A DNA stretch of 64,000 nucleotides from Amphiscolops sp. MND2022 (GCA_964187785.1 OZ076409.1:55864001-55928000); one strand, 5' to 3'. Shown: positions 1 to 64,000, numbered from the stretch's first letter. The notes: a model not told the origin generated them from the sequence alone. A program made the numbers and translations.

Positions 1-2
1 TG

Positions 3-1424
3 CCGAATCTTCCCCTAAGTGGAGGATTTGAAAATGTCCTAACAGCAATTGACGTATTCTCTAGATATTTGTTCGCCTATCCTCTTACGGACGCATCGGC
101 GATCAACGTAGCAAAAGCCCTCATTGACATTATGACTAAGCACGCATATTTACCGACAACACTTATTACTGACAAGGGTACTGCATTTACGTCCACGATC
201 ATTGCGGAAATTACGCAAATTTTGGGCATAACACTCAAATGTGCAACAACAAAACACCCACAAACAATTGGGAAACTGGAGCGGACCCATGCCTCGCTGA
301 AAACAAACCTCAAAATGCCATGTGGAGAGTACCGCCGACAATGGCACAAATACTTGCCACTAGCAGTACTAAATCACAACACTAGTTATCATGCCAGCAT
401 CGGTTGTGAGCCGACGAGAGTATTTCATGGAAGAATTCCATATAATATCTTGGATCACAAGCTTGGAAATAATCCAAACGAGCAAGTCAACCCAACAACC
501 GAATTTGCTGAAGAAATCCAAAACCGGACAAAAATCCTGATTGACAAAACAAAGCAGAACATTATGCAGTCGTATATCAAGTAAAAAGAATATTACGACC
601 GCAAAGCAAAAGCTGCTCCATTAAAGGAGAATGATTACTGTTTCGTCTTACAGCCGAAAGCGGATCATCAAGGATCAAGAATCCCATTCCGCGATTATCG
701 TTGAGTTGGACCATTTGTAATCCAAAAAGTCCTGCCTAATGAAAGGTATATCGTACGACGACTTAATACAAACAAAACTCAAATATTGCACTGAATTCGC
801 CTCAAAAAGTTTGTCCCCAAGCAACCGCTTGAGGACAATTTCCGAGAACAGCAATTACAGCCTGATGAAGAGATTGTCATTCTGCAAGATGACTTATATA
901 TCATAACGTGGGAAACAGACTTTGGCGAGCAGCTAATTACACGAGGACACAATCCTATTCCGACTAGCATGCCGAACGGCGAACGGCCGAATGCGGCAGA
1001 ACCGAGTCACAGTGACGTAGACGAGAACGAAGCGGATTACATAATCACGCGAGTAGAATTAAACAACGTCAATGCGACGCACAGCCAGAACGACCGCTTA
1101 AGTGATGACGTCACTAAAAGAAATGAAACTACTACAGTGACAGAAAATGAAGAATCTGATTGGCCGAATCTGGCCGTTTCCCCAAAAAACCAAGAAAAAC
1201 CCTTGCCGAATACCGCAGATAGACCGGAAAACGATGAAATTTTTTCAGAAAGAAACTTGGCGAATGAAAACGATACACAAAATTCTCCAAACAGGGGGGA
1301 TGATATTATCGTGCCCGAAATATCTGAAAACGATGCTAGAAATGAAAGTCTGAGCCCTAAAGGAGGGAGGTATAATCTCAGGCCTAATCCCAACCCAAAC
1401 TACTCAGAAGACTTCAGATACTAA
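3..1424 (+). pseudogene. pol: Gypsy pol C-terminus: integrase catalytic core, GPY/F-like region and acidic tail, interrupted by in-frame stops
   Basis: One frame reads PNLPLSGGFENVLTAIDVFSRYLF...ITDKGTAF...TIGKLERTH...VGPFVIQKVL...RYNLRPNPNPNYSEDFRY*. Stops at 582-584, 702-704 and 792-794. Homologous to ORF 60449..61603. Confidence 0.93.
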
Positions 1425-1650: not shown

Positions 1651-4600
1651 CTACTTCGGCGACCCTTGCCTAGAGACACTCTTTACAGAAGAAGACGTGG
1701 ACTTGGTTCCAACACTACCAGAACGCTTTCTCTTCAAGCTACTAGGGATGTCCAAGGCAGGCTGCTTGCTTAAGGCACTGGACGACGCAGTCTCTTCCAC
1801 AGTCCTGACGCTGGCAGAAGGGGCAACAGAAGCAGCCTTGTACGACGATAACAGAGACTTATAAATCCGAGACCGCCCAAACGAATCGACAAAAGTCCAT
1901 GGATCGTAGTCGTTAGCGAAGGCGGCTCGTCCAAAATCCACAGATAAGAGCGAGAACTTTGCCAGGCTATCATCGCTGCTACAGTGGGCAACTGAGTCAG
2001 GCACACCAACCATGTAGCTTTGGGACGGGAGCGCCACATCGGTGAAACGTCCTTTGAAATCCGAAGTGTTAATACCCCCGATAACGACAGCGGATAGTGT
2101 AGGGCTGCTAGATGTAAGACAGAGGCAACAGAGCTTAAACAAATACAGAAGGCGAGGTCGATCATGAAGAAATTCGAGACCTATCAAGAATCCAATCAGA
2201 TCTGGCGATGTCTCAGTGACGTCAAAATTAGAGGGATATGTACCTCGGAGATAATCTAAGAGTTCAAGGTACTCAGTTCGGTAAGTGGTCTCATCGGCGC
2301 TGGTCACCCAGGAACGCAGAAGGAAAGTAGTGTATAGGGTCTCAAAATGACGAAGAGCAACTTCAATTGGCCGCTTATGGAGAATAGAGGGATCAAAGGC
2401 GGCAAGTTCCTTAACAATGTCTGAGTTCAACCCAGACTGACGAAGGATAGTATCAAGTAGGTAGCCAATGTACTGGCATGCACTAGTTGCAAAACTTGTC
2501 TTCACCGTCTCAGTAGTCATTTGAAAAACAGATGGAGAAAAATCGCTCCCAGAGTGAATCCCTTCCGCCTTCTGTTTACTGGCAGTACTGACTTTCTGAG
2601 TGAGCTTCTGCCGGACAAGGAACTAGTCCACACCCATGTATTTTCCTTCCGAGGTTTTGAAGGCAAGAAGGACGAACCAGGCATTCTCGAGTGGTGTAGT
2701 ATCAGGAGTATAACATCGGAAGCACAACTTGTGGATGAAGCGGCATACCTCTCCACACAAATAAAACGATGCATCTCGCCTCTGGCTCAAATTAACGACG
2801 AAGCTGGTCACGTCTGAAAACAGAAGCCTATGTCCAAACTCGGACATACAACCGGGTTTCTAAACAATACGAACCATACTAACAATCACTGACGAGAAGT
2901 CGGAAATCTCCAGCTTAACCACGAAGAATTCGTCGCATATGAGTGACCATTCGAAACTCTGTACCTGTAACAAAATGCGCCGTGAAAGTCCTATAGTAGC
3001 AAACCCAGAGATAAGGAAACTAAATCCTATACAAGGGACTAATGGAAACTTAGTCAGGGAAGATAACCCACCCTGGTATGCACTCCTTGCCCTTCCTGCC
3101 TGGGAGAATACTTCGTCAAGTATTGGGTGATCTGTTTCCAATGGACAACCAGTTCGCGGCAAAGTTCAGGAATTTCCTGCAGGTTTAGTTTGCTGGTAGC
3201 TATAGCCTAAAAAGAACAAACCCTGGTAAACATGAGGCTTAATAGCAACTGGATTACAACTTAACCCCTTCCAGTCCCATAGTCCAATTACATTGTGATC
3301 TACTAACACGGCTGAGGTTGGTGGACTTGAGGGCCCATGGCTCGGCATTTGAGTTCCCAAGGGAGATGACCAGAGCTTGCAGTACAGAGAAGAAATCAAT
3401 CTTCCCGAACACAGAGTAGCTCAGCTTGTGCATCAAAGTGGGAAGGTCCAAGCTGTCGAACCGGAAGCAGGTCTGGATTCCTCGGTTAAAGAAAGATGAC
3501 TGATTGAGAGTCTGAATCAAACCAGTGGGGTCTCCGGAGCAGGCAACAATATCGACACGCGTGGACGTGACAGAAAGCAAACGAGCTAGACACCCCAGCT
3601 CACCAGTCAAGTTTGTGGTCGGCAAGGCACTTCGGCACACGAACACTCGGCACAGATCGCTGCCCTTCCAGATTCGTACTGACATAAATCTGAAGGTCTT
3701 CCTCTTCTCGAACTCCACAGAGAAACACTGCTCGTTAGTGACTTGCTCAGCGATGTCCTCCATCGCCCCATTGAAATAATGCTGGAAGATGACCTGAACA
3801 AAACAGTACATTTAGACGTTAACCAAAGACGCAAGGCTAGAACAAACGGTGTGGATACTTACGGTGAGCCGTTCTGCCCCCCAGTCGAAGTCACACAACG
3901 AAGCCTGGTAGTTGGTGAAGGAACTGACTCGGGCCCACAGATTTCGGAGAAGAGAAAGGTCACCTCGGGTCTTGATAAAGTCAGCCACAATGCAGATCTG
4001 AGTTTTGGACTAAGGAGTGACTAAGGCTGTCGTATGCCCTTTCATGAAATCATCGTAAAAGGAAAACCTTTCCCCTATGTCCACGAGCTCAGCATGGATA
4101 AATTTGGGCAATTCATCGGCAAGCTTTAACATGTTGAGAAGTTTTCCGTCTCGCCCCCTTACTCGGTGTTGCACCTTTCCAGTTATGGGGTCAACTGTTT
4201 TGAGGTGTTCATAACGCCACCTCTGGTCTCGGCGCAGGTGCTTCTCGCTTCTGTGGTGACGCAATATTTCAAGAGTCCTTTTGGTCTTTATGGAGAAATT
4301 CCGTTTGCAAATATGGCACCAGACCATAAGCGGATTATGCAATGGATCGGCAGGTCCTGAGATGAAAGACCTGGTCCAACCGATCTTCCTGAAGAATTCC
4401 TCCCGCATTTAGACTCCTCTACGGGACACCCCCTAGTCTTCTTAGTCTTCTTGGGAGAAGGCTCTTCGTGGGACTTCCCAACTCGGGACTGTTCACGTAT
4501 CTCTGATAGCGTGGCGTCCTGACTAGTGAAGTCACTTGTTCCCACTTCGTCCGAAGAACTGACGTTAGGCCTGGCAGTGCTTGTGGTAGCAGAAGGTCCG

Positions 4601-5750
4601 ACAAGGGCTGGTTTTGCAAACGAAGCGGCTATAAGTGCCATTTCAGTGGCGCCATCACTTTCCTCACAGCTCGTGACATTGTCCGAAATTTGCCCAGAAA
4701 TTGAGTGCCTAGGCAACTCTGAACCTGACTCGGACTCGAAACTGGAATCGTTAGAGTCGCCTCGTGCGGGTGTTTGTGCACGGGTCCTCAGCCTGAAATG
4801 GTCAGTTCGTGGTTGACTAGTGGTCGGTTGTCCCTTCAGAGCGTCCAAAATCATTTTCTCCATCGTAGTGTATGTGAGACTCATGGTCTCGTTGGTGAGG
4901 ATTTTGAGCAAGTGATATATCTGACCCTCTGAGAAGGCTACTGTTGGATGCCCTAGAGGAAGGCGAAATGCTTCCGCAGTCTCAAAATACTCTTTCAGGA
5001 GAGCTCGACTACGTCCTGATAGCTCATGCAGTTTGAAACGAGCTTGGCCAGTAGATGTACTGGGGGCAGCAGCATCAATCTGGTGGGAGCTAGACTCATC
5101 TCCTCCTTCCGTTCCCGACTCAGATCCTTGGGGAATCCCCGAGTATAGAAGAGGCACGGTTGGGTCTTCACTCTCTTCGAACAGTTCCCCCTCACTTGCT
5201 TCAGTGAGGTACCGCACGACGCTCGCCCCGTCAGGCAAGGGAGGGGCGTCATGGAGAGAGGAGGAAGTATCTTCTTCTGACGGTCTCCTTTCTTCTCTTG
5301 ATTCTTCGCCTTCATTATACTGAACTAGGAGTAATTCAGTCAATTGGGTCCTGGATATTGGAGCAATTTCGAGGTTGGCCTCAATGGACGTGAAGCTTGC
5401 AACACCCTGTCTGGTTTGGGGTTTAGGCTCGGGAGTACTAGTACGGTTGCGAATATCAGGTGCAGAGGAATTCTCCCCAGACTCGTAGTTCTTGGGTGGC
5501 TGTTCATCGGCGGGATTAGCAATGATGGTTTCTTCTTGAATAGAAGATTGGACTTTCTCCATAATCCGGACCATCGTCTCAGCGAAAACGTAGACATCGG
5601 TTTCACTATCCACACTCTGAGGGGACACTTGCAGTCCACTTTCAGATGTATGCGGAGCCTGAGTTGTAGGATCGTCGGGAGTTCTAACACTTGTGGGGTC
5701 TGGTGTCTGAAAAATCCATTCTACCGCTTTTGAAATCTTCCGGAAGTGTC
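1651..5750 (-). pseudogene. Antisense intron-containing cargo gene of element A: long disordered N-terminus, C-x2-C-x16-H-x5-H zinc finger, hAT-transposase-like body lacking evident catalytic motifs
   Basis: ZnF WCHICKRNFSIKTKRTLEILRHHRSEKHL in ORF 4010..4408. GT-AG introns at 3862-3794, 3307-3207, 3071-2965 and 2883-2814 join the ORF pieces. Homologous exon by exon to 55366-59700. Carries a few stops and frameshifts; the 5' end is unresolved. Confidence 0.75.
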
Positions 5751-6776
5751 TTGAAAATCAATAGAAACGTGTTAACACGTGGCTCATGATGGAAACAGGA
5801 AGCAAATATGAACAAATTTCGACGTTGATCAAGTTGAGTTAGTTCAAAATGAAAACCAGACAAACCTGTGTTATGAGACATGTGGATGATTCTACGTCGT
5901 TGGGACAGCAATCCTTATGGGATTCTAGAAGATGGGGATAGTGGCCGGGCGCGGCTGCAGTTGAAGAGAAGACACGAAGAAACCCAAATGGGGAGAATCC
6001 AAAAACGGAGTCAGGAGTGAAAGAGGGTTACGGTTGTTAGCAAGGATCCAATTATAAAGAAAGCAGAAATGTAAAGAATTTGAACGGTAAAAGAATCGAA
6101 ATTCTGTAACAATTAGTAAATTGAAAGTTGGAGTTCGTGGCTGAAGAAAATTACCAGAATAATATTATTGAATTATCTACATATTTAAAATGTACATGGA
6201 GTCTGCCAGCGAAATGTACAGAAGACCTTCTTTATATGCAACTTATTCAATTAGTGGCCAAATATGGCTGTTTGTCCCATTTTGTTTTACCGTTTTGTTC
6301 CACTATTCTAGTTCTGTTCAGTTAGAATGTTTGCCATTTTGAATTATTCGAGATTATTATTTTTTGCCATTTTATTATTCATTTTTCAAATTATCGAAGC
6401 TTGGCTCTGACTGGCCGAAGCCATTACGAGAAATTTTGGTGACGCGTGCCGTTAATTGCTTACAAGCGACCCGTTAATTACCCACTTGAGACGGGTGTAG
6501 TTGATATTCATAAGTCGAGCGCCATTTACACCTCTTCTAGTGATGACACTGATGAGGGGTAAACATCAGGTTATCAAAAGAAGCCGACTAATTATGAAAT
6601 TCCATTCAAGAATGTTTGTGACGAATAGGGGCAATCGACCAAAGTTTTAACCGCCAAATTGAAACTTCGGGAAAAAGCCTAACTCGGCTAGATTCTTGGT
6701 TCAGACAAATTCATTCTACCTAAAACTTCATCTCAACTCAGTTGCAAAAGCTTCAAAAATAGTAAAGAAAGTCATC

Positions 6777-7561
6777 ATGAACAAATATAACCTCGCAAGG
6801 AAACTATTTGGTCTGGAAGAATCTGACTCTGATGATTCTGGAAGATCAGTAATATATATATCGAGCAGCGAGGAAGAGTCATCAGATTGGGAGACCGACT
6901 GTTCCACAGACGCGGAGCAGCTTGTTGCGAGAATCGAAAGAGAAGTCACCTCCAGCCCCATGCTAATCGGGGGCCGCATAATGACTACGGAGGAATCTTC
7001 AGAAGACGAACCAGAAGCTGGCCCCAGTTCTTCCCAGAAGCGAACAGACGTGATTCCGAAGTTTGACCACAAGTACTTTGACGAGGAGATGTGTTACGCT
7101 CCCCCAAAGAAAGCAGCTAAATCTCGAATTGAACTTTGCAAAACCCTAATGCCCGTGCCAGAGTCGCCTATGTCACCGCCTGATCACGAAAGAGGGCCGA
7201 GTATGGATACCCCCTGATGCAGCCTGTTATGGGAGGTTTTCATGCCTCCTATCATGTGCAAAGCACCAGGCCCTACGAGAATATTAGCACGAAGTTTTAT
7301 TCAGGATGCATGGTCTGTGGCAGATCTTCAGAGGCAATCAAGAAGGAGAAGGTGGAATGGTACGTCCCGAGGTCCAAGCCTAGAGGGGAACCCGAATACA
7401 TAACAAAGATCAGAAGGGAAGCGTACGAAAATGGACTGAACGCTGGCGCCTTTCTCTTTATAACACCCGCAGTGTCGCAGGCTGCCGCCTGTGACGGTAC
7501 TTTAATAACGACGACAGCGACAAGCCAAGAGACATTGCTCCGAACTTTGCCTACATTTTGA
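6777..7561 (+). CDS. Sense accessory ORF(s) of element A: acidic/Ser-rich N-terminal part plus a CxxCGR domain; split at a TGATG overlap (7215-7219)
   Basis: GCMVCGRS...RREAYENGLNAG...SQAAAC matches GNCHWCGRT...RSRAYL(N/D)GFEAA...QPRAC in ORFs 53187..53540 and 48903..49256. Confidence 0.6.
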
Positions 7562-8479
7562 GCAAGTATATTTTGTATTTCAAAACTTACTTTTAGTAAC
7601 AATATTTGCTCTCAAACCATTACATTTTCCAATACGTTGCAGTTCATATTAGTCTGTTAATATTACGATTTGGGATAGGCCAAATCAGTTTGCTGTTGTA
7701 TTTACTGTAGAATAGAATCAAAATGCCAGATTGATTTGATGCAATAACAAACAACAAGCAAGTTAATTGCGAGAAGGAAACGTGTTCAAGTGCGGAAACG
7801 CCCTTTCTCGGCGACGTAACTTGCTGTACATTGTCAGCCAATCATATCGTTCCTTTTTGAATTATGGGCGCTTTTATTACATAATGGCCGAATAAGGCCT
7901 TTTGACTTAACGCAGTGCACGCCTGCTGGTATTTATGTCAAATGGCCGGTTCTGGCCAATTCATGCATTATAGTATTTTGTTGTCTAATTAAGCAAGTAA
8001 TTACTCGGAGCTAACTTTCCAAGATTTGAAACTAAATTAAAGCATTTGTAACGCTTTAATGTCTGTACAATCTTAACCTAAAAAGATGGACGATTAAGGC
8101 CATCTTACAATGTCTCTTTGAAAGTTGTGTATTTTATGATTTTGGGCCTATTCCGGCCCTAACATGAAAGTGCGTTCTCATATATATTTGGATTGTATTG
8201 AAGCAATATACACGTGATGATGCATTCCACTCTCAATAACTCGTGTCGGCACGTGCCTTTACTACACTCCGCTGTAAGGAATGTGAGCGGAGGCATTTGT
8301 TGACGCTTTGATATGATGTTTCAGTTAATAACTGATTTGATACTTCTGTCTTGATCAAATGACCTTTGAATGCCATTTCCTAAATGTCCCCTAATAATAT
8401 GCAGTTGTCGGGACATTCTCTGTGAAGTAATAAATCACGTGATTCCATTTTTCTTGACTAGTTATGTAAAGTATGTGAA

Positions 8480-9212
8480 TGTCATCCCCTCATGAGTATA
8501 TATACTGATACTCGGCCTGAGTGGGACACAATTCATTTGAGACGCTACTAGTAAAGATTGAACTACAAACGGCTTCGCTGTTATTTTCCGTATTGAATAA
8601 TTCATTGTTAATTCGGAACTGTTTCTATGCCTACTACTAGAAAACAGTCAAGAAAGTCAAGAGGACTCGAAATGCTGTCAGATATCGAGAACGTAGACAT
8701 TATGTTAGGTGAAAATCACTTCAACGCAAGAGAGAGAAAGAGAGAAGGTAGTTTGAACAGTAACTTGCGTAGAAGGTCTAGAAGCTTCGCAAGCAATGAA
8801 TCTGAGAATGAAAATGGAAATGTAGGTAGAAATCAGAGAAATGATCACGCTAGAACAAATACCGAATATGATCAAAATTCAGTTACAGCCAACTCTAGTG
8901 CTGAGATTAACAGGTTGTCAAGTGAATTGAATTCCCGCATTTCACGGGAAATGGACGAGATGATGAATTCTGTGAGTGTTCAGATACAGAGGGCCATAAG
9001 CGACGCGATAAGCACTCAGGTACTTCCTCAAATCCAAAACGTTATTATGGCCGGATCGGGACAAGGGACCAGAAAATGATGGGACGTTCCGGCTGAGAGA
9101 CCGGAACTGCCTTCCGAAGTTCAGCGAAACTTGAATGCGAAAAACAGCTTAAGAAATGAACAAGATGGGAACCAGTCAGACAATGATTTTCCTGGTTTAA
9201 ATGTTCATGACA
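8480..9212 (+). repeat. Putative 3' LTR of element A containing the N-terminus of a gag-like ORF (ATG 8627)
   Basis: Terminal inverted TGTCATC...CATGACA. ORF MPTTRKQSRKSRGLEMLSDIENVDIMLG is homologous to the ORF in 16144-16743. The left boundary is uncertain because no clear PPT is visible. Confidence 0.5.
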
Positions 9213-25755: not shown

Positions 25756-26308
<553 letters not shown>

Positions 26309-47410: not shown

Positions 47411-47977
47411 TGTGATAATCCTCTTGTGTGCGGTCCTCATTTATGACCACAGAGTCATTTAGATCAATGTTTTGCATGCTCAAAGGTTGTATTGGCGTTC
47501 TAAGTTCGTTTAAATTAGATGGCCTGAAAGGATTATCCCTTATCTCACCTTCTTGATTTTCTGGCTCAGATGCGTTTTCTTCACCGTCGTCATTACTTGC
47601 GTATTTTGAAGTTCCTGCTCTGGGGGTGTTTTGTTCTCGATATCGTCTGTTTGGTACAGATTGTGTTCTTCTGTTTTTTTTCATCTCTTTAAATATTTTC
47701 TCTAGTTTCTCATCCATTTCTTTTCTCAAGTTTGCTACTTCCTTGTTCGTTTTATCTGATATTCTTCGGGTCCAAATTTGCATTTCATTTTCATTCTGTG
47801 TTCCACTGTCTAGAGCTATTTCTTCGTGCCTAACTGAACTAACATTTTCAAAGTTACTTAAAAATTCGATAACAGTTTCATTACCTTGTGATGTTTCTAT
47901 TTCGGATGTGCTCAACTCTCTCTCTCAAGCGAGGGTGATTGTCCTCGTCTAGATCTTCTATTTCTCTTGTTACCCAT
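47411..47977 (-). pseudogene. Duplicated copy of the LTR-embedded gag-like N-terminus of element B
   Basis: Same peptide as 51695-52261. Confidence 0.55.
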
Positions 47978-48902: not shown

Positions 48903-50048
48903 CTATCGCTGCTCTACGGGTCCAACACAAGCTCTAGGCTGCGACAGGCCAGCATTTTTGAAGCAAATGAGTGCAGCCTCGAACCCATTTAGATAAGCTC
49001 GTGACCTGATGTTCCGATCTCGCACTGTTTTGCCGGGGAATTCCGTGGCAGTAGCATAGGCTGCCAGCGCATCTAGGGCGACTTCATCGTAAGTCCTGCC
49101 ACACCAATGACAGTTTCCTTGCACGTGTGGCATAACCGGAGTGTTAAGTTGCCTTCGTGGAGGGTTTCTTTGTTGCTGACTAGTGCTGTCACCGTGTACA
49201 GGACCCACATTGGTCGTTTCCAAGTTGCTATGTGTTCCCTGGGTGTCAAGATACAACTGCCCTCGGCGTTATAATAGTAAGCAACAGTTCCAGGCCCATT
49301 GGGTTGTAGTGTTTCTGCATTTAATTTGTATGGGATTTGTGCTATGTCAAGGGTAGCTGGATTTGGTAATTGAAATTGCGCAGCTGGCATATCATACTGG
49401 TTTATTACCGGCGTCTGCAATATTCTTTCCCCATTATACATACGAGCATAATTAGGTTGCGGAATCTCTTGTGGGATTACCACTGGAGCAATGGGTACAG
49501 GTCTTATTGGCCCATTTTTTTGGGTGAAAGCAGGGAGGTTGTTGTTGCCAGTATCAGGTTGTGAAAGCCTTTGCCTCGATAACCTCTCAGCTTTTATAGG
49601 TGGAACAGCTAGTACGGGTCTGCCATAATTGTTCCTAGGGACATTCGCGAAGTTGGCATTTAACAACAGTTCTTCGCTATTGCTTCCGTTTGATTCAAAA
49701 AATGAGATTGGCGAGATATTAGGCAGTTCGGTGTTCTCAGAAATCATACTCAGCATTTCTCTCTATATCGGTCCCTGTTATGTCAATTACAGAATTTTCT
49801 CTAGTTTCGGGCTCACTTACTGCAAATAGTCTGGCAGCGTTTTCATTTACGAATGCAGTCATAGGGTCGTTAATTGGCCCTCCGATTCTGAATCTTAAGT
49901 CTATAGGTTCCGAATTATGTTGTTCAGTCAGAAATTCTTCCCCAGAATCGCTCGAGATGTTTATAAGTCCGGGGGAGTTTGTCGAGACAGATTGCATATC
50001 TTCATCAATTGTGAAGAGGTGAGGATTTTTTGAAGGTCTGTTGTCCAT
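48903..50048 (-). CDS. Duplicated copy of the sense accessory ORF cluster of element B (three overlapping ORFs, last with a CxxCGR domain)
   Basis: ORFs 49737..50048, 49073..49756 and 48903..49256 mirror 54021..54332, 53357..54040 and 53187..53540. Confidence 0.55.
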
Positions 50049-51694
50049 TTAAGATTGAGATTATCAACTGGTCTGTTTCGCGAATATTTGCCGAATAAAA
50101 ATCTCCCACTTCTTTTCAGTCGATGGGCATTTCAACGGGTTTCCCAAATACGGTAGGTAGTTTGTCGAGTCATCTTCTTCTTTGTTTACCATTTTCCCGG
50201 TAATTTTCAGGGTAAGCGTTAGGTTGTGTTTCAACTTTATTTAAATAGCTCCATAACAAAATGAAATTTGTCCTCACAATTTCCATATATGGTAGATAGA
50301 GGTGTTAATTCTTCATTCAAGATCACAGAGACACTATAATCACTTGTAAACAAATCTAAATGAAAATTAGCATGATGAATTTAACAACCAATTTTTATTT
50401 TTTGAATTTTGCATATTTCATGAAATCTTACATGTGATTTTAATTGGAATTAATAACATCAACAGGACTGCTTCCATCCAATGTGAAGAGACAGCAACTC
50501 TTCCAGATGACCTGAAACAATCTAAAGACAACCAAAGGAATATCGTAAAGTAAGAACTGTGCCGCAAAAAGTACCGAAAAAACTATTCTTATTAATCGTT
50601 TGAGAGAGTATGACAGAATCAGAGGGAGAGGAAGAATGATCGAAATATACAAAAGAGGGAGAACTACAGGGAAAAGACTGCCATTACTTTGAAAAACAAG
50701 ACGTCTGAAATCCTACCCTCCGGTGAAAAGAAAGATTTTGAAAGGAAAATCCCAGAGTGCCGAAACATATCTCCGTAGGCATCGAACCGACGTCTGCCTG
50801 CATGGGAAGCGTGCATCCTAACTACTGGCGACATGAACAAAGTGTGCTGAAAAGTGGACCGTTTGCATACCATTCTGTGAGTGAACGTAAACAAACTAGT
50901 CGTTGTAATCGTAGGGCACTTTTCTCTTCATTCCATGTGATACAGTATTTTAAGCATTATAACCAATAGTTTTTGCTCAAACAAATAAGCTCGCAAATGC
51001 CTCCAACACCTTGATGTTGATCTGAAAACGCGCCAAGTTGTAAAGAAATTCTAATAAATACATGAAAAAGCATTGCATCAGCGAAATATTTAGCGGTATT
51101 GTTTTTCTATGCATTTCCCAAAATTATGCCAAAACTGCTTGGTAGCCCATAAAACCATGTAGAAGGTTCAAGCATTTTCAACTAGGGTTAGAGCCTACAT
51201 CAAGTAAATCAATAAATTTGCATCCTCAGACACTTAAAAAAAAAACAAACGACTGGGCTTTGCAAGGTTTTAGTCATCCCATTTAGGTGTTTGATGTTGA
51301 CAACAATTACAACACTGTAACAAGAGGCGCAGTGACACTGCGATATTTCTGGTAAGATATTACAAGACGCCTGCAAAAAATAATTCTTTCTAGAGTCATT
51401 TCTTGACAAAGTGAAATATATAACCAAAATTTACAAACTGAAAATTTCCCTACACATGTGTAACCTACTTCATACATGTTTGCTTGGGGTACGGAAAACT
51501 CAACACATGAAAACTCAACACAAGAAAACTCAACGCAGAAAACTCAACACATGAAAACTCAACACAAGAAAACTCAACACAGAAAACTCAACACAGAAAA
51601 CTCCACACAACTAATTAATTTCAGTTAACACCTCAATTGAGTCTAATTTCTGGATTAAACAATTCCTTAAATGCCTGCCGTAAAGAATTGTATA

Positions 51695-52261
51695 TGTGAT
51701 AATCCTCTTGTGTGCGGTCCTCATTTATGACCACAGAGTCATTTAGAGCAATGTTTTGCATGCTCAAAGGTTGTATTGGCGTTCTAAGTTCGTTTAAATT
51801 AGATGGCCTGAAAGGATTATCCCGTATCTCACCTTCTTGATTTTCTGGCTCAGATGCGTTTTCTTCACCGTCGTCATTACTTGCGTATTTTGAAGTTCCT
51901 GCTCTGGGGGTGTTTTGTTCTCGATATCGTCTGTTTGGTACAGATTGTGTTCTTCTGTTATTTTTCATCTCTTTAAATATTTTCTCTAGTTTCTCATCCA
52001 TTTCTTTTCTCAAGTTTGCTACTTCCTTGTTCGTTTTATCTGATATTCTTCGGGTCCAAATTTGCATTTCATTTTCATTCTGTGTTCCACTGTCTAGAGC
52101 TATTTCTTCGTCCCTAACTGAACTAACATTTTCAAAGTTACTTAAAAATTCGATAACAGTTTCATTACCTTGTGATGTTTCTATTTCGGATGTGCTCAAC
52201 TCTCTCTCTCAAGCGAGGGTGATTGTCCTCGTCTAGATCTTCTATTTCTCTTGTTACCCAT
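51695..52261 (-). pseudogene. gag-like N-terminal ORF inside the putative 3' LTR of element B
   Basis: ATG at 52261: MGNKRNRRSRRGQSPSLERE, then a 2-nt slip in a (GA)n run, then LSTSEIETSQ..., a coiled-coil segment, and EDRTQEDYH ending at the CA terminus. Same position as the 8627 ORF in element A. Confidence 0.55.
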
Positions 52262-53186
52262 TTTGTCAGATTGAAACGCTGTTTTGGAGAAAAGAATTTC
52301 AATTGGAATGATGAGCAAAGTAAAATTGGGTTGAAATAAAGTTGAAGAAAATGTGCATTTTGTCAAGTTATCAAAGTTGGAACAAAGGTTGTGAGGGTGA
52401 AAAGAAAGGTCTGATCAGTCTGAAAGTTTTCTGTTGAATGAATATTGTTGGGTTCCTTACTCTCCTTTTTGGTTCGGGCTAAACTTAGCTGCATGACAAC
52501 CAATTTTTGGAATGTCATGGTTACATCACGGTTATGTAATTACTAAAAAAAGTACCCAATCTGATATAAAAATAGGTTTGTAAGTTACATGGCTTCTATA
52601 AATAGATTCCTGCATGACGAATACTTTCCGTCGTTTTGATTGATCATCACACTAACTGCACCAATCCGTTCATCGTTAATGAGAAAAATGTGGCAACACG
52701 TAGTATGACTCATTGCAATGCAAGTATTAATTTCAACTTAGTGTAGCACGTAAGATTAAGTCAACGTAATGAGTCATACATCTAAAAGATATAGTTGAAG
52801 AGTTGAAAAATGCGATGTTGTACTGCAGTATGCTGCAAACTTAGTGCGGCAGATTAATCCAAATATTAAAGTCCTTACGTATTAATGCATCATACAAATC
52901 ATGTATAATTCATTCATTTCACTACAAATTGTGTTGAGCGGTATTATTCATCAAATATGTTAACACCTTGCAACATTTAGTGAATTGTTTATGAATGGAT
53001 ATTCATAAACAAGTATTTCACAAGTATTTCATAAACAAATATTTCACAAGTACAGTTAACTAGAATAGAAAACAAATTCAAATAATGCTGGTGTATAAAA
53101 GTCATATATGAATACATGTAAAACAAGTTTCAAGAAGTGATGAATTTTCTCCAGTTTGAACTAGTAGATGGGCGAGTCATTTGCCT

Positions 53187-54332
53187 CTATCGCTGCTCTA
53201 CGGGTCCAACACAAGCTCTAGGCTGTGGCAGGCCAGCATTTTTGAAGCAAATGAGTGCAGCCTCGAACCCATCTAGATAAGCTCGTGACCTGATGTTCCG
53301 ATCTCGCACTGTTTCGCCGGGGAATTCCGTGGCAGTAGCATAGGCTGCCAGCGCATCTAGGGCGACTTCATCGTAAGTCCTGCCACACCAATGACAGTTT
53401 CCTTGCACGTGTGGCATAACCGGAGTGTTAAGTTGCCTTCGTGGAGGGTTTCTTTGTTGCTGACTAGTGCTGTCACCGTGTACAGGACCCACATTGGTCG
53501 TTTCCAAGTTGCTATGTGTTCCCTGGGTGTCAAGATACAACTGCCCTCGGCGTTATAATAGTAAGCAACAGTTCCAGGCCCATTGGGTAGTAGTGTTTCT
53601 GCATTTAAGTTGTATGGGATTTGTGCTATGTCAAGGGTAGCTGGATTTGGTAGTTGAAATTGCGCAGCTGGCATATTATACTGGTTTATTACCGGCGTCT
53701 GCAATATTCTTTCCCCATTATACATACGAGCATAATTAGGTTGCGGAATCTCTTGTGGGATTACCACTGGAGCAATGGGTACAGGTCTTATTGGCCCATT
53801 TTTTTGGGTGAAAGCAGGGAGGTTGTTGTTGCCAGTATCAGGTTGTGAAAGCCTTTGCCTCGATAACCTCTCAGCTCTTATAGGTGGAACAGCTAGTACG
53901 GGTCTGCCATAATTGTTCCTAGGGACATTCGCGAAGTTGGCATTTAACAACAGTTCTTCGCTATTGCTTCCGCTTGATTCAAAAAATGAGATTGGCGAGA
54001 TATTAGGCAGTTCGGTGTTCTCAGAAATCATACTCAGCATTTCTCTCTATATCGGTCCCTGTTATGTCAATTACAGAATTTTCTCTAGTTTCGGGCTCAC
54101 TTACTGCAAATAGTCTGGCAGCGTTTTCAATTACGAATGCAATCATAGGGTCGTTAATTGGCCCTCCGATGCTGAATCTTAAGTCTATAGGTTCCGAATT
54201 ATGTTGTTCAGTCAGAAATTCTTCCCCAGAATCGCTCGAGATGTTTATAAGTCCGGGGGAGTTTGTCGAGACAGATTGCATATCTTCATCAATTGTGAAG
54301 AGGTGAGGATTTTTTGAAGGTCTGTTGTCCAT
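53187..54332 (-). CDS. Sense accessory ORF cluster of element B (acidic/Pro-rich ORFs plus a CxxCGR-domain ORF)
   Basis: Three overlapping ORFs; the last is homologous to 7217..7561. Confidence 0.6.
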
Positions 54333-55365
54333 TTAAGTTTGAGATTATCAACTGGTCTGTTTCGCGAATATTTGCCGAATAAAAATCTCCCACTTCTTTT
54401 CAGTCGATGGGCATTTCCCCGGGTTTCCCAAATACGGTAGGTAGTTTGTCGAGTCATCTTCTTCTTTGTTTACCGTTTTCCCGGTAATTTTCAGGGTAAG
54501 CGTTAGGTTGTGTTTCAACTTTATTTAAATAGCTCCATAACAAAATGAAATTTGTCCTCACAATTTCCATATATGGTAGATAGGGGTGTTAATTCTTCAT
54601 TCAAGATCACAGAGACACTATAATCACTTGTAAACAAATCTAAATGAAAATTAGCATGACGAATTTAACAACCAATTTTTATTTTTTGAATTTTGCATAT
54701 TTCATGAGATCTTACATGTGATTTTAATTGGAATTCATAACATCAACAGTACTAATGTCCTGATACAAATACATTTCAGGATACTCATAGACATAAAGTT
54801 TCCAGGAAGGAAACATGTCCACCTCAAGTTTTTCTGCTTCATGTTGTTTATTTCAGCGTCAGTATGCTGTTTCTGGAATATGCAATTATCTCATGGTATC
54901 CAAATGATGCATAGGGTTATGTGATATCATTTGTTTTAGGTCAAACACCGTCTTGCGTTGTACTGTAAGATGCCAGCAGTTTCGTTCATTTCCTCATTTC
55001 GCCACTATGGGGCGGCGCATCATGTGTATGTAAACGCACTAAGTTGTACTGTTCTAAATACCAATCTCGCTGGCAGGCATGATTGGTTTCAAACTATTTC
55101 AGCCAATCAGCATCGAGCATTTGCGCAAATATGCTAATTGTGTTTTAATCAGCCGGAAGCCACGCCATATAAAACTTTGTTTGTTAGTAAAGTTTCGTAG
55201 TCCAAAGTCAATTTCTACAGTTTCACAGTGTTCTCAATCAACATTTCCTTGCTTCCCTCTTTCGTACTTTTGTCTATAACTCATAGTTTTTTGATTTTCA
55301 TTTAACTCATTATTAGTTTCAACTGGTAATTAGTTACGCCTTTCCCATTGTCAATTCTTCCCATC

Positions 55366-58300
55366 ATGGTTCGTTCAAAAAGCACTTCTAATCGGCGTCG
55401 CAAAGCTTCAAAGGAGAAAAGGACAGCTTCGACTTCCCAGGATCAACCATCAACCACTGCAGCTATTTTGACAGGTAAGCTTGAGTTCATTTTCTTTGTG
55501 TATTATTGTTGCTTTCTTGCTTTTTTGAGACGTCCCAGATTTTTAAATACAAGTTGGCCAGACTCGTATTTCATTGACATATCTTTTCGATTTATCAACT
55601 TCCTGTCTTCAAGTTTTTTGAACGGAAACGCTAACTTCTTGTTTTGGTTTCTAGCATATTTCCATTCCGAATTTTATTTCAGGTTCTATCTCAGCTACAC
55701 AAACAAAACGCATTGCCGAGTGTTCTGAGCCGCGGAAATCTGCTAGAATCCAAAGGACTCTGCTTGAATGAGGCTATAATCCCCGATTTTCCCTTGATGA
55801 GGAAGACCTCCCTCCAGCTTTTGTTCCTCAAGTACTACTGGAAGATAATTTTGATGAACTTGTGAACGCCGTTGATTCGCCAGACTGTGTTTCTCTAAGT
55901 GGGAAGCAAGCAGATACAGCTGGGGATATTCAGATTGGAACAGCTGATAAGGACGACACTACTGAAGTAACGGAAAATACTGACGCTCCTATAAGCGGAA
56001 TTCCAGCAAATCCATCGGCACCTCTTGACGCCGCTTCTTCAAAATTCGTGCACTGTAAGGATAAGGACGTTCTGACAACCCAGACTGGGAACACTCCAGT
56101 TTCAGCCAAATGATCCCCTTTTACTAGGTATCTAATTAAAAAGACTGATCCATCTAAGGAACAAGGGAAAAACGACACGTGTGCTGTTACCTCGGAGCAA
56201 AACAGCCCCAAAAATTCTGACCCCCAAGACACTTGGGCAGCTCCTTTCGAGAGACTTTTAGCCGAAGCGGCAGAAGAAGCTGCTATGAAACAGATTCAAC
56301 TCAACTCCAACTTAATGGTTCCGGATTCTGCTCAAACCGATGAGCGCGGCGGGAAAGAAGGGCGCCCCGTGACTGAGGCTATTACCACAACAAATCCACC
56401 AGATGTGGTTGGAGACAATTATCAGCCATCCGATTCAAGTTCAAACAGTAGCACCGATTCCGATCTGGAGATGTCTTCCACTGAAGAGTTTGTCGCTACT
56501 CCAGAGAAGCCTCTCAGGAAGCGCAAGGCAGAGAAGAAAAGTAGTCCAGCCAAAAAACGGGCTGAGCCTCAACATATGCTCGCCGAATGGATGTACGATA
56601 AGTACCCCATCCTCAGGTTCTTTGCCGCTGCACCTTCTGATGCGGCCGGAAATCCAAATAAGTACCGCTGTCGCGTTTGTATGGTAGAACTTTCTCTCAA
56701 AACCAAAGGTCCTTTGGAAATGTTACGGCACTATCGGACTGATGCGCACCTAGTACGGGAACACAGATTCCGTATGGAGACTCCTGGACTTGCACTATTC
56801 GATAAACAGTGCGTAGAATTGACCGGAATGGCCCTAAAGTACGCGAAGGAGAGAGCCAAACGGGAGTACCCGATCGCCCCCAAGCTTGGCGATTATTACC
56901 TCCTAGTTGATCAGCAAGAACTGCCAGAAAAAACGGAACCAGATAACCCGGACAAGGAGACATTGTCACAATTGACCCTACTCAAGTTCGGATTATGGCA
57001 TGGTGGACATTTGGATTCTCTGATCGCCCTCTGGCATGACCTGATCACGGAGACAAGGACTTCAGAATCTGTTTCCACACACGATTGGAGACCACACAGG
57101 ATCTTGGTAAGTTGTTTTGGTAGTCGTTTTTGTCTAAAAACAGTCTAGGTATTTGGAAAAGGTTGTCTTTTTATAGGCGCTCCTAGCCCACATGTTTCGC
57201 GAGCTCCTATCATACAGTGTCACTTCCATTGAGTCCTCGGGCAGTTACTCCCTCCGATTGGCATTCACGGCACAAGAGACGAGGCTCTTCGTGAATTTCT
57301 GGTCCGGAAACTCATTACACAGCATGTGTTCAGCCGTTCTCCCCGGCCGACTTACCAACCAGTCTGCCTTGATTCCAATCATTAGCAGTTTCTTCGCTCT
57401 ATTAGACAAAGAAGTACACCTGCCTTTCTTAGCTGGGTTTTCTCGACGTCTTGCTTGGACTTTTTCCCGAGTCCTACCTCAGCCCAAAAGGATCTGTAGT
57501 ACACCAAAATTCGGTCCTGAGGACTTGGAGGATCTTCTGCTTGTCCCCACAGTCCAAATTTTGACAGGCTCGACTTCAGGAGTGTTCTGGATTTCCTGCT
57601 TCTCCGACTGAAATCTGCTTGTGGAAGCTCCTGGCTGTCATCCCTTCCAAACTTTGAAAAAGTTTACCTTTTATATTTCATTTTCCAAACATTTTGTAGG
57701 AATATCTGCTTGGTGACATAATTTTATTCTCGTGTAAACGTGGCTATTATGGCTCTGGTTCACAGTTCTTTTTCTTGTGAAGGTTCCTTCCCTTTTAGGA
57801 GAAATTAAGTTTCCTTTCGCATAAGACACTTCGCAGATATTTCTTTGTTGCATATCCAAGCTTGCAGCATAATACGGCACAATTGGTCTTCTCAATTAAT
57901 TTTTCAAAAGGTTTTGCTCACGATTACGTAATTTAGTATGTTGTAACGAATGAGTCACTATACGATATTTGTTTCGACTTTCTGCACGTGAATATCTGTG
58001 CTCGACTGTTTCTTTGATTTTGGCACCCGCTCATTTTCACTTCGTGATACGTGGTGTTACGTAATAGAAGTCAAAATTTTTGTGTTGTTACAGCTGGCGT
58101 TCAATCTTGACTATGACCTAATACAAGCTGTTGAGATTCTCGATCAACTGATTCAGAACTGGGAGCACGTCACTTCCCATGTGCGGGACAGCAGGAGAGT
58201 GGCTGCATATCGTTCTCATATCCAAGAGGTTTCTCTTCTTATTTGCTTCCTTAGTGGGTATTCTTCACATGGTTTTTATATAATTTTTGGTTTCCTTTCA

Positions 58301-59700
58301 GCCATCTGGGATGGATGATATCATCACCAAGGATCGTGTGCTGGTTGTACGACTGTTTATCATCCGCAACATTTTGAGTCAATGTTAGTCTTCCTCTTTA
58401 ATTGTTTTACTTCAAGTGTCATTTCCAAAGTAGACTTCAACGTATCGCACAAAATTCCTTCTGTTTTGGTGGTTCCTTATTAGTTTCGTATCAAGCTTCA
58501 TAAGTTTCTTTCTGTTCTAGACAATTCAACCTTCAAGGAAGTAGATGCGAGTGTAGCTGGAGGGTTTCGCAACTACAACCACTTCTGTGTCTTCGTGTAC
58601 ACACAGATGCAAACCATCTTCCCTACGTCCTTCCTTGGGAGCATCAGCAATTGGGACAATTACATGCAATTAAACATGAGTGAAGTTACTTTGCCTATCA
58701 AGACAGTTGATGAATTTCTGCAGGATAAAGACCTCTCCGATTTGTTATATAGGAGCAAGATCCCTACCCCACGGAAATTCGCTGAGCAGGCCATATCATT
58801 CTACCGTTATTTTATCAAACAGTTGCTTTCCTGTGAAATGGCTACGTCTTCATTTGCTCGTGGGCTTTCGTCGTTTGATGAAGCTGTGATATGCGATCGA
58901 GAGGAGGCGCAGTATGAAGACTCTATCCAAACCCTTGCCGGATACTTCGTCCAAAAACGATGGATCTCCCCCCATGTAAAGCCTGTTGTAGTGAGCGAGT
59001 ACTGTTCTCTCGTCACCAAATTCCGTGCAGACAAAGTTTCTAGTTCAAATAAATATGTCAGTTTCATTTCCTGCTACTATGAGCTTCAATGCAGATTGGA
59101 ATTGTCCCGCCTCTTTAAAGTTTGTTGTGAAACGCTCAGAAGCCCTTGTACCCACCTCCAAACTTTGTTGTACCTTTGCCTGGCTTAAAATCTAGTAAAA
59201 TGGAATTCTCTTCTTGCGTGAGGAGCTTTCAGTGTTCCCTCAGTTCCATTCAAAAGGTAGAGAGTCTTTTCTTATCAACAGCTGCACTTCCTCGTGCATA
59301 CGATCTCCTCAACCAAAGGCCTGGGCTACTTCTCAAATGCAAGTTCTCAGTATCGAATCTCCTGAATTCGACTCATTTTTTGAAGATTGGCTTGCTGTCT
59401 ACTTTGGAGTCCTGTTACGCCACGAATGTTGCTGTTGACAGTCGTACTTGAATTACAGCAGGGAAAGAACCCAGCTTTTGCTCTAGCCGTAGTAGTAGTA
59501 GTAATGCTAGTTTCCCTGTAAAGTCTTTTTCAGCAAAATCTTCTCCAGAGAAATCTTCTCCTGAGAAATCGTCTCCAGATAAGACTAAACAGCCAGTTGC
59601 TGCAGATTCCGGTGTTGCCCCAGCTGTTCGTAGTTTGATTGAACTTCCCTTCCTGACTGCTTCAACTTCTGCTGTCTCTCTCTTCCAGTGGTGATAAGAA
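55366..59700 (+). pseudogene. Antisense intron-containing cargo gene of element B: zinc finger plus hAT-transposase-like body
   Basis: Exons 55366-55474, 55683-57106, 57177-57661, 58094-58228, 58302-58383 and 58521-about 59700, with GT-AG introns. ZnF YRCRVCMVELSLKTKGPLEMLRHYRTDAHL. Homologous to 1651-5750. Several stops and frameshifts. Confidence 0.75.
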
Positions 59701-59880
59701 GAAGCAGAAGAAAGGAAAACCAGCTATACATTAGCAAATTGTCGGATTTAGTCAAACTTTGTTTACGCCAATGGCTCAATTTAAGCTACAAATTTTTGCA
59801 ATTTTCATTGCTTCTTTTCTTGACTTTTGTTGATTATTTAACAGGAAGCTAGGTAGTTGAGTTTGTATTACTTTTTGTTT

Positions 59881-62800
59881 TTAATATCGGTAGGAGTCTG
59901 AAAAGTTAGGATTTGGGTTGGGTCGTAGATTGTATTTTTCACCACGTGTATTGGTAGAGGTTTTCTCTTTTTGAACCTCATTATTTTCTTGATTTTCATC
60001 TGTATTCTTTGGGGTTTTTTCTGCATCAATAGTAGGGTTAGGTTGTAAGTCTTGTTGATTATTATTTATATCGATTTCATTTTCTGTATTTTCGGGTAGG
60101 GTTTCTTCTTTAGGAACGGTAGTTTGTTATACGGGGCTCCCCTACTGTTTTTTGAAATTTCGAGGGAGGGTGGGTGGTTTATCGGTACAGATTCTTGTAT
60201 GTCATCTTGTTCGTTATCTGGGAGTTCTATTTCAAATGGATCTGTACCAAAGTTTGTATCCCATGTATGGGCATACAGATCATCGTGTGTAACCATTATG
60301 TTGTCATCTTTTTGCCAATCTGTTTCTCTGACAAAATTATCGGCTAGGTGCGCTAGGTGTAAATTTCCTCAAACGTATTCGGTGTAACAGTTGTGTTTTG
60401 TTTGTCCCTAGCCTTCGTAGAATGTAATTATTGTTTGGTAGGACTTTTTCAACTTTGTAAGGACCTATCCAACGGAATTCTCGGAACGGTGTTTTTGTCG
60501 GCCTTCAGGTTCAGTATGTAGCAATAGTCTGTTGTAGTAAGCGGTGCTGCTTTTGCCTTGCGGTCATAGTATGCTTTATATTTCAAATATGACTGCATGA
60601 TTTTCTTTTTGGTTTGGTCATTGAGTATCTCCATTCTGCGTTGTATTTCTTCTGCAATGTCAGACTGTGGAGTATAACGTGGGTTAGGGTTATAGCCTAG
60701 CTTGTAGTCTAGGATGTTATGTGGTATCCTGCTGTGGAAAACACGGGTGGGTTCACATCCTAAGCTGGCATGATACGTTGTGTTGTGGTTTAATACAGCC
60801 AGTGGTAAGAATTTGTGCCAATTTTTGCGAAATTCACCTGTTGCTGCTTCCAAATTTGTTTTTACTGTAGCATGAGTGCGTTCTAGCATGCCGATTGTTT
60901 GTGCATGTTTTGTCGAAGCATGTTTTAGCTCAACTCCAAGCACTGCTGCTTCTTCGCGGGTGATTTGTGAGTTGAATTGAGTGCCCATGTCAGTTATTAT
61001 GGTCGTTGGTAAATATGTGTGTTTGCACAAAATGTCCATAATGACTCTTGCGACTGTAGGGGCTGTGATTCGAGTTGTTGGATGAGCAAATAAATATCTT
61101 GAGAAGACATCAATTGCTGTTATAATGTTATCAAAACCTCCACTCGGTGGGAGATTAGGTAATATGTCCATCTGAAGAATATCTTCTGGACCGAGGTCCC
61201 ATTCTGGACAATTTAGGAGTTCTGTTTTCAGTAAATCGTTATTGATTCTTTTGTTTTGAATGCATATTTGGCAGTTTTGTACCCAATTTTTGATGTGCTT
61301 TGCCAAGCTTGGGTAACAGTATTTCTGTCGCGCTTCCTGTATCATTTTTGTTATTCCTGGGTGATTTGCATTGTGTCCATGCAATGCTTGTAGGAACTCT
61401 TCGAGAAGCTGTTTCGGAAAGAGTATTTGGTAGTGTGAGATTTGTCCAATATCATTGTAGTATTTTGGTACAAGAATGTCTTGGCGGATTTCGATTCGGG
61501 GTATGTTTTGTAGGTATTGCTGGTAGCGATTGTCTTGTGTGAACGTTGACTCATCAAAAGGCTCACCCTCTATTTTTGCTGAGATTGCAAAGGACTGGGT
61601 CATTATTTTGTTCGAGTCGGATTTTTGCGTTGTCTCGAAATCGTCCTTCTCAATAATCTATTGTTCCGGCAGTTGGTTTATGGAAATTTTGTAATTCAGT
61701 TATTTCATTTTCCGGTTCGTTGTGTGTTTCTGTTTGTGCTTGATTTCTAATATTGTCTTTTTGTTCCCAGAGTGTTTTTTCATAATTTTCATCGTCTGGG
61801 TGGATGTAAGATTGTTCTTCTTCGGCTATGCCGGAGGATTGGATATTAACCTCGATAGCTTTTGTTTGTATGTCGTTGCGTAAATTCATTTCTAGTTTTT
61901 CTGTCGGGTTGATTTCCGTTCGCGGCAAGAAGTCTGCAGCTGTATTCATTGCTCCTGCTACATGTGCTATAACGAAATTGTACTACAGGACGTAGTCGCA
62001 TGAGTTCCATAGTGCTAGGGGGATGATTTTTGTTTGGAAAAATCTAGTGACTGCTCGGTTGTTGGTGAAAACGATTACGGGAAAAGTACTTCCCCACATT
62101 AGGTGTCCAAATTCTGAGAATGCGAAGAAGATGGCTAATAACTCTTTGGCATATATTGATATTTTTAGTTGGGTTGGGTTGAAAGTTTTTGAGCCGAATG
62201 CGATATGGGCGTATGTTTTGCGTTTGGATTGTAGTTTTTGTTGAGGGTCGTCTTCAATCATAATCGCATATCCTGCCGCTGTAAAACTGGCATCGGACAT
62301 GACGATTAGTTGTTTGTCTTTAAGTGGTTGTTTGAGTGCCATTTGGCAAGATTGAAGGAGGAGGTCGTTTAACTGTTCAAAATTGCTTGTGAGTTCGATA
62401 GAAATGTAGAATTTGTTGGTTTCTTTCAGCAGTTTGAAGAAAGGGGTGAGTCGTTCCGAAAAGCGCGGTATATAATTTCTGTAATAGTTCAGAAAACCAA
62501 TATACCTTTGAAGACCTTTTTTGGATTTTGGGAATTTAAGTTTCGCTAAGAAATCTTTGACTTTGTTTACTTGGGGAGAGACTCCTTCAGGTGTAATCGT
62601 TCTTCCTAGGAAGTCGACTTGTTTCACTCCAAAATGGCATTTTGACATTGACAGTTTCAAACCTGCGTTCCGTTTACATTCGAAGACTGCTCGGATGTTT
62701 ATACACAGTTGTGACACTGTGTTTGCTGCGATTCCGATGTCGTCGACGTATTGGGCGCATTGGTCTGCTTTGATGAGGGTGTCTAAGTATTCTCGTATGA

Positions 62801-64000
62801 AACTGGAGAATGCTGATAGTGATCTGCGAAGGCCTTGTGCTAAACGCCGATATGCAAAGGTTCGGCTAGCAAAGTTAAAGGCCAACATCTGAATTGATTC
62901 GTAATCTGCCATCTGAAGGCAGTGGTACGCTTGTGAACAGTCAAGTTTACAGAATAATTTCTTTCTTGCTATGTGTTGGGCTGCATCGGAAAGTTTACTG
63001 ACTGGGTGGTTGTTGTTTACGTAGTCTTCGGAGATGAGATTATTTATTTTGCGCAAGTCGACTAAGAGTCGCAATCGACCATTAGGTTTTCGTTGCGCAA
63101 AAATGGGACTTGCGTATTTAGAGAAAGGTAGAGTTGTTATTATACCATACTTGTGAAGTAGGGCAAGTTCTACCGTGATGTCGTCTTTTAGGTTGATCGG
63201 TGTCGGAAGGCTCTGGCTATATGCTGGTCGGTCATCGTCTGGTGTAAGTTTGACCTTGAATTCTCTATTTGTTCCAATGTCAAACCTGTGTCGGGCGAAA
63301 ATATCGTGAAATTCAACCAGCAGTTCTTCCACTTTTTGTCGTTCAAACAGTGTGAGTGTTGTATCACTCCAGTCAAAATTGTCAAGAAATGTTTTGCGTG
63401 ATCTTTCGTCGTCTTGTGGGTTAAGTGTTTCTAGTGTTAGAAGTTCCACTAGTTCATCAAATATTCGTTTCTGAATTGGTGTGTATGTTGTCGGGTCTCC
63501 AGGTTGTTCCGGTGTTGGAAACCAGTATTGTTCCGTTTTGTCTTCTTTGTTGTTTACTTTTAGGAGTTCGTTTAGGTATACGTCCGTAACTTCAGTATGT
63601 TGATGCATGATGAATGTTAGCATTGAAGGGTTGATTGGTTTGATATATTTTATTTGTTCAGGGGTTAAAACTCAAATGTCGGCTAGATGTGTGTCTGTTG
63701 TGATTGTATAGGGTAGTTCTGAGAAATTACAGATCTGGTATCCAACTGCGTTATTGTTGACTGTGCAGAGGGAAGATACAAGGAAAAGTGTGTCATGATC
63801 CTCAAGGTGCGTAGATGGCGTTACTATGCCCTTGCATCATGATCATTTGAGTGCGGCATTCTGCTTGCAATGAGCATCGTTTCACCCGGTTGCAGTGTGT
63901 ATGTTGTTTCTTCAAGTAGTGGTGTTGATTGTCGTGTTGGAAGATTGTGTTCTGGTTTCAATTGCATTGATAGATGTGGAAAAGTTAATATTCCTTGTCG
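59881..64000 (-). pseudogene. pol: Gypsy pol (dUTPase-like linker, RT, RNase H, integrase, tail) with stops and frameshifts
   Basis: RT LRLLVDLRKIN, KLDCSQAYH, QYVDD. RNase H SDAS...IAFGSKTF. Integrase HGHNANHPG...CQIC, QMDIL, ITDMG, LERTH. Ends KYNLRPNPNPNFSDSYRY* at 59881. Confidence 0.95.

Follow-up and report, generated by a model that had tools for sequence, protein, structure and literature searches.

A multi-intron antisense gene of probable hAT transposase descent in Ty3/Gypsy retrotransposons of Amphiscolops sp.

Antisense genes in mobile elements

The closest precedent for the gene described here is the group of antisense Transposase_28 ORFs of plant Retand/Tat elements. In these Gypsy elements, antisense ORFs lie between pol and the 3' LTR, many of them are labelled Transposase_28, and the antisense product of Grande is a nuclear protein expressed from an internal promoter (excerpts of PMC7264820, PMC11963269 and PMC4408406). 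The excerpts of PMC7264820 and PMC11963269 do not mention introns and call the origin of these ORFs unknown. As far as these excerpts describe Retand/Tat elements, including maize Grande with its gene23, the family studied here shares with them the position of an antisense ORF, its family-wide presence and a transposase-related label. It differs from them by five introns, a near full-length hAT-like scaffold, exchange as a unit and the absence of a Transposase_28 match.

Transposase-derived accessory factors are known from DNA transposons. TnpA of Spm is itself transposase-derived, and dead transposases have regulatory roles (excerpts of 10.64898/2026.08.24.746577 and PMC5735166); retrotransposons are not mentioned in the former. 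By analogy with TnpA and with VANC of VANDAL, as portrayed in such excerpts, the antisense gene may encode a fast-evolving accessory factor. TnpA and VANC belong to plant DNA transposons, however, and their roles were shown experimentally, whereas the role of the antisense gene is one that we infer. HTLV-1 HBZ and related antisense retroviral genes, in the partial accounts used here, offer a second analogy, namely a nuclear regulator encoded in antisense near the 3' end. The hbz transcript is spliced. HBZ is unrelated in sequence and is driven from the 3' LTR, whereas the promoter-like block of the antisense gene lies inside the element, some 1.8 kb away from the LTR. The mirror case is Ty1his3-AI, where a single cycle removes an intron that has the same orientation as the element (excerpt of PMC8074290); this construct is engineered, and its intron and gene are opposite in direction.

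The excerpts of PMC6431247, PMC5408684, PMC13547354, PMC12477816 and PMC4402516 describe no antisense gene with introns in an LTR element. Our literature search, mainly of openly available papers, turned up no account of an antisense gene that combines hAT derivation with several introns. As such, antisense extra ORFs are known from LTR elements; the combination of multiple introns, probable hAT derivation and exchange as a unit appears to be new.

Layout of elements A and B

The window is the whole analysed stretch of 64,000 nt from Amphiscolops sp. MND2022 (GCA_964187785.1, OZ076409.1:55864001-55928000), and all coordinates are counted from its first letter. It covers parts of two Ty3/Gypsy LTR retrotransposons, elements A and B, of about 15.8 kb each and both decayed copies of one large family, with LTR pairs that are 97.3% (A) and 96.6% (B) identical. 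In the sense of the element, the layout is LTR, gag, pol, antisense gene, a third sense ORF (ORF X) and LTR. The Ty3/Gypsy order of gag followed by protease, RT, RNase H and integrase is present, and Ty3_capsid and a zinc knuckle are weak in gag. The LTRs of the family measure 1.5-1.9 kb and have TG...CA ends. An exact 5-bp target duplication was found for element B (TATAC) and for eight others among 26 elements examined. TGGTGACAGGA follows the 5' LTR as a candidate primer-binding site, and in most clades no clear polypurine tract precedes the 3' LTR. Gag begins with an ATG some 550-600 nt within the 5' LTR, in a frame that crosses the LTR end and the primer-binding site in all seven copies with a mapped LTR end.

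Element A lies on the plus strand with its integrase and pol C-terminus at 1..1424, the remaining pol, gag and 5' LTR preceding the window. Its broken antisense gene (1651..5881, minus strand) is followed by a broken ORF X (6663..7561, plus strand) and the 3' LTR (7473..9212, plus strand). Element B lies on the minus strand with its 3' LTR at 51695..53229 (TG...CA ends), a broken ORF X at 53187..54332 that ends inside this LTR, and a decayed pol (RT, RNase H and integrase) at 59877..64000; gag lies further on, past the window, as does the 5' LTR (about 65881-67413). ORF X encodes about 260-390 aa, is acidic and Pro-rich with a C-terminal CxxC plus helix, and occurs in all four clades of the family, where it is directed away from the antisense gene and terminates within the 3' LTR. 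It had no Pfam match, and an env of the errantivirus-like kind was not found, this third sense ORF being without a transmembrane segment (no hydrophobic or transmembrane stretch in any of four relatives tested). Three further observations concern the surroundings: a 4.28-kb tandem duplication of 97.6% identity (46183-54750) repeats the 3' LTR, ORF X and flanking DNA of element B; at least three pieces of sugar-transporter (MFS) genes cluster between the two elements (29168-37453, minus strand); and a long tandem array of a 9-bp unit occupies 25608-26500.

The antisense gene has six exons, separated by the four introns of the earlier note, here numbered 1 to 4, and by one further 5' intron. In element B it lies on the plus strand. 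Exon 1 (55366..55474) opens with an ATG and ends at a phase-1 donor, G/GTAAGC, after which the 5' intron (55475-55682, phase 1) leads to exon 2 (55683..57106), with a long acidic low-complexity stretch, a basic cluster, a C2H2 BED-like zinc finger and a helical domain. Exon 3 (57177..57661) would encode a predicted five-strand RNase H fold without the catalytic Asp, exon 4 (58094..58228, 135 nt) carries an invariant Trp, and exon 5 (58302..58383, 82 nt) ends in phase 1. Exon 6 (58521..59734, stop codon at 59732-59734) is broken in this copy; a helical insertion or dimerisation-like region, a Ser-rich tail and a basic C-terminus are predicted for it. In element A, the same four introns are accompanied by a phase-1 5' intron (5865-5740), which comes after a coding exon of 16 nt. 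The 5' intron carries conserved motifs (TTGATCAGG in three clades and repeated ACTTCCGG/ACTTCCTG), unlike the coding sequence on its two sides, which is unalignable.

On re-reading, the coordinates and the intron and exon lengths of the earlier note all proved correct, and both splice junctions that it quoted were found in the sequence. The introns of B (plus strand) lie at 57107-57176 (70 nt), 57662-58093 (432 nt), 58229-58301 (73 nt) and 58384-58520 (137 nt), those of A (minus strand) at 3862-3794 (69 nt), 3307-3207 (101 nt), 3071-2965 (107 nt) and 2883-2814 (70 nt), and all eight are GT..AG. The internal exons measure 485, 135 and 82 nt in B and 486, 135 and 81 nt in A; the 1-nt differences, which according to the earlier note coincide with frameshifts, are private deletions near 57560 in B and near 2906 in A, relatives having 486 and 82 nt. 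Copy B also carries stops at 55769 and 56111, both in exon 2, another stop late in exon 6, and three frameshifts in all. Neither A nor B can produce the protein, and since both are broken, the question concerns the family rather than these two copies.

A promoter-like block (55002..55166, plus strand) common to B-clade copies precedes exon 1, with CCACTAKGGGGCGG at 55002, ATTGG/CCAAT at 55082 and 55103, ATTTGCGCAAAT at 55119 and CCGGAAGCCACGCC at 55153. Each of the four clades has motifs of the CCAAT, GGAA and GCCACG types upstream of exon 1, as well as a first exon with an ATG and a phase-1 donor. Transcription would start at this internal block, with the antisense 5' end just after the GCCACGCC block. 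The earlier note had the gene expressed from its own promoter, and the promoter-like block together with the preserved splice sites is consistent with this. No conserved AATAAA-type signal was found after the stop codon. CCACTAKGGGGCGG (55002-55015), which B-clade copies conserve in the interval from ORF X to the promoter block, resembles a CTCF site.

Introns, selection and exchange across the family

Zinc-finger exon searches of the 1.07-Gb host genome were scored for 150 matches each of the B and A types, drawn from 6,934 (B type) and 7,576 (A type) first-look candidates, which are not copy numbers. A spliced aligner was used to annotate 64 copies, which had been chosen by hand from throughout the ranked lists in a way that favoured long open frames; in 28 of them the frame is unbroken from the zinc finger to the end. 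The antisense orientation reported earlier holds beyond A and B, where pol is on the opposite strand: in 61/64 copies the pol C-terminus is encoded on the other strand, at a distance of 139-301 nt beyond the aligned end of the gene. When 64 copies were chosen by their integrase instead, 57 had a listed zinc-finger exon on the opposite strand at a distance of 3.9-6.5 kb, and the other seven were without a listed partner.

The four internal introns interrupt identical codon positions throughout the 64 annotated copies, in phases 0, 0, 0 and 1. The earlier note had proposed aligning many copies to check GT/AG conservation; with the main aligner, which favours GT-AG, 233 of 244 called introns have these ends (63/63 for intron 1, 59/63 for intron 2, 55/58 for intron 3 and 56/60 for intron 4), and intron 1 of the 64th copy was seen by eye. 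A control rerun without splice-site preference on 32 lineage representatives gave the same picture, GT..AG being placeable within 6 nt in 113 of 125 gaps versus a background mean of 6.2 over the 256 dinucleotide pairs. Features of U2 spliceosomal introns are present: besides the GT-AG ends, 111 introns from 29 lineages yield a donor consensus GT(A/T)AGT and a pyrimidine-rich YAG acceptor, with a weak branch-point motif (46/111 introns versus 31 on the other strand). Intron lengths range from 63 to 1106 nt, and remainders of 0, 1 and 2 on division by three are all represented among them. When 1.84 billion protein representatives were searched with a profile, 619 matches were obtained, from which 173 proteins were retrieved. 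The end of exon 2 is reached by 98 of these, and 75 of the 98 go on with 'VS' (Val-Ser), the read-through translation of GTNAGT at intron 1; in three database proteins without intron 1, exon 2 runs straight into exon 3.

Selection was assessed in 19 pairs. The three pairs with measurable dS gave dN/dS of 0.14, 0.04 and 0.03, and dS was saturated in the other 16, with dN of 0.17-0.33; by these comparisons the exons are under purifying selection. The introns can persist because of the antisense orientation, and the splice signals are kept because of purifying selection. Judging from these signals, the antisense transcript would be spliced, and we have little doubt that the family carries a functional spliced gene.

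The shielding of antisense introns from loss, which the earlier note took as established, fits the persistence of the introns in most copies but is not complete, as introns 3 and 4 have been precisely lost in 8 of 63 copies. Five copies lack intron 3, which amounts to three changes on the tree, and three lack intron 4, each time with the exons fused in frame. Intron 2, at 66-1106 nt, was never lost in the 63 covered copies, and copy L126, a candidate for loss of intron 1, was ruled out, the intron being present and in frame. The ends of intron 4 show no microhomology, and its loss points to a spliced template, since there is no terminal repeat for slippage; template slippage at AG/GT repeats could explain the loss of intron 3 in the A clade but not that of intron 4. 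Introns 3 and 4, 82 nt apart, were only ever lost singly, which speaks against a fully spliced template, as such a template would favour another outcome.

Trees were built with FastTree. Four pol clades match four gene clades with strong support, and the gene was therefore gained once, long ago; between A and B, identity has fallen to 61% in pol and to 20% in the antisense gene. Within clades, the pairs L067/L070 and L080/L083 share 95-100% identity across LTR and ORF X and 99% and 96% identity in pol, but only 50-65% over the antisense gene; versions of the gene that are 62-73% identical are found on backbones whose LTRs are 95-100% identical. The breakpoints fall at the pol stop and the promoter block, so that from these alignments the exchanged unit is the antisense transcription unit, swapped within clades between near-identical backbones. 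Strict LTR-specific co-evolution is weakened by this, since divergent gene versions sit on near-identical LTRs. Nine of the 26 copies examined at full length have an unbroken RT-integrase region as well as an unbroken conserved part of the gene, and this, together with LTRs that are 100% identical in some copies, indicates that the family moved recently. Head-to-tail arrays of whole elements were also seen (L035-L036 and L039-L041, spaced at 14.2 and 15.2 kb and more than 99.6% identical).

Descent and role of the encoded protein

A structure model of P0160, a natural relative without intron 1 (pLDDT 74), contains a zinc finger, helices and an RNase H fold of five strands. In Foldseek, the ten top-ranked rows are all hAT transposase Hermes (best E 4.5e-4, prob 1.00). 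With VIA, residues 14-353 of the model align with Hermes 23-567 (Z 6.6; 137 residues, rmsd 3.8 against 2bw3); these Z-scores are middling, and Hermes is tied with actin-like and integrase RNase H folds, but it has the longest coverage. The last exon, for which the model is weak (pLDDT 55), aligns with Hermes 243-565 in VIA (Z 5.6, rank 4 of 48,161), and Foldseek returned nothing for it at E 0.001. Atlas leads, to be read as leads only, are hAT families with scores of 0.76-0.88. The predicted models thus place a helical insertion after the RNase H core, as in the hAT fold. The zinc finger aligns to the Hermes N-terminus and keeps its ligands in 61-62 of 63 copies, with one weak Pfam zf-BED match (E 0.028, in 1 of 26). 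The Trp is invariant (63/63 copies), and the spacing between strand 1, strand 4, this Trp and the last helix resembles that of five hAT transposases of the same genome. For the PF05699 dimerisation region there is no Pfam match and weak structural and Atlas support.

At the level of sequence the relationship is silent. Pfam scans of three exon alignments gave no hAT-level match and no Transposase_28 or plant mobile domain, sequence searches of solved structures gave no link to hAT, and neither did HMM and hhalign comparisons with 21 and 10 hAT ORFs of the same genome. DUF4371 had no match in the genome, where the control was equally silent, and a metagenome scan gave 275 pattern matches, none confirmed. 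The search for terminal inverted repeats flanking the gene found only low-complexity 10-11-mers in 4/7 elements. The predicted catalytic positions, which were placed by predicted strands and motif spacing rather than by superposition, carry Asp at neither in any of 63 copies and Glu at the first in 22/63, and the ERxFS motif is likewise found in 0/63. In these models the protein shares with Hermes and with the domesticated hATs (ZBED, ZMYM1, FAM200 and GTF2IRD2) the zinc finger, RNase H core, helical insertion, Trp and spacing; it differs from them in having no predicted DDE triad, no detectable sequence match to them and no inverted repeats, and in being moved by a retrotransposon. We consider it likely, from the predicted fold, that the protein descends from the transposase of a hAT-type DNA transposon, and, given this descent, very likely that it is a dead enzyme.

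The donor could instead have been an already domesticated host gene of the ZBED, ZMYM or FAM200 kind, taken up with its introns by DNA recombination. The five introns, the inactive catalytic site and the long acidic N-terminal region are reminiscent of such host factors, FAM200/GTF2IRD2-like clusters appear among the Atlas rows, and remnants of inverted repeats are missing, but the best genome matches all lie in elements (61/64 adjoin pol), with no stand-alone copy among the matches listed, and a transposon can insert itself whereas a host gene cannot. We regard this donor as unlikely.

We favour, as the more probable course of events overall, that a hAT-type transposon inserted backwards and now serves as a dead DNA-binding accessory that helps the element to stay expressed. 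A hAT-type DNA transposon would have inserted backwards between pol and the 3' LTR, its gene arriving with introns because it was inserted as DNA. The introns would have survived because it is the opposite strand that is packaged as genomic RNA, and the splice signals are not seen in it. The earlier note had spoken of antisense capture; the persistence of an antisense, multi-exon gene stands, but its source was probably a hAT-type transposase gene arriving as DNA and not a captured cellular mRNA. The transposon ends and catalysis would have decayed, DNA binding and nuclear signals would have been kept, and the rare intron losses would have arisen when a copy made from spliced antisense mRNA recombined with the element.

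The role of the protein is less certain than its descent. It may act as a transactivator or anti-silencing factor for the element, and divergent versions may be maintained by conflict with host silencing. By analogy with TnpA and VANC, we put regulation of the element's own expression, among the possible roles, at slightly less than an even chance. Somewhat more tentative is the full version, in which a dead five-intron hAT transposase gene forms an exchangeable anti-silencing or targeting module of which dozens of deeply diverged versions persist on near-identical backbones through host conflict, and in which antisense splicing is recorded as precise intron losses.

A gene of the same origin might also act at integration, binding cDNA or integrase and a chromosomal target, so that a swap of versions shifts target choice. 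The dead transposase scaffold, the DNA-binding finger and the basic, nuclear-type signals (predicted) would suit such a role, and free exchange between backbones fits a specificity module; however, divergent versions pair with identical integrases, and an antisense transcript need not be co-packaged, which makes this role improbable. A little less probable again is a gene that limits its own family, through copy-number control, exclusion of relatives or antisense RNA feeding small-RNA silencing, with diversity due to frequency-dependent selection. Convergent antisense transcription would end beside the pol stop, deep versions are kept on near-identical backbones, and a dsRNA function of antisense ORFs is raised in the excerpt of PMC7264820; yet RNA alone is insufficient, because selection acts on amino acids over 800 codons, and a pure repressor should often vanish, whereas the gene is present in 57/64 integrase-defined copies. 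That the gene is a neutral passenger, a nested DNA transposon without benefit, or that its splice sites are false, is largely refuted and hardly credible: copies A and B are broken and nested insertions are common, but purifying selection, the 28/64 unbroken frames, retention of the gene while protein and pol diverged so far, and the precise in-frame intron losses all stand against it.

The reviews consulted call the origin and role of antisense extra ORFs unresolved. With a regulatory accessory of hAT descent as the preferred reading, this family would supply a traceable origin, namely a class II transposase inside a class I element. It indicates that a gene with several introns can be carried through reverse transcription over a very long period. 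It also offers natural experiments, as many gene versions occur per backbone, and its dated, precise intron losses bear on the mechanism of intron loss.
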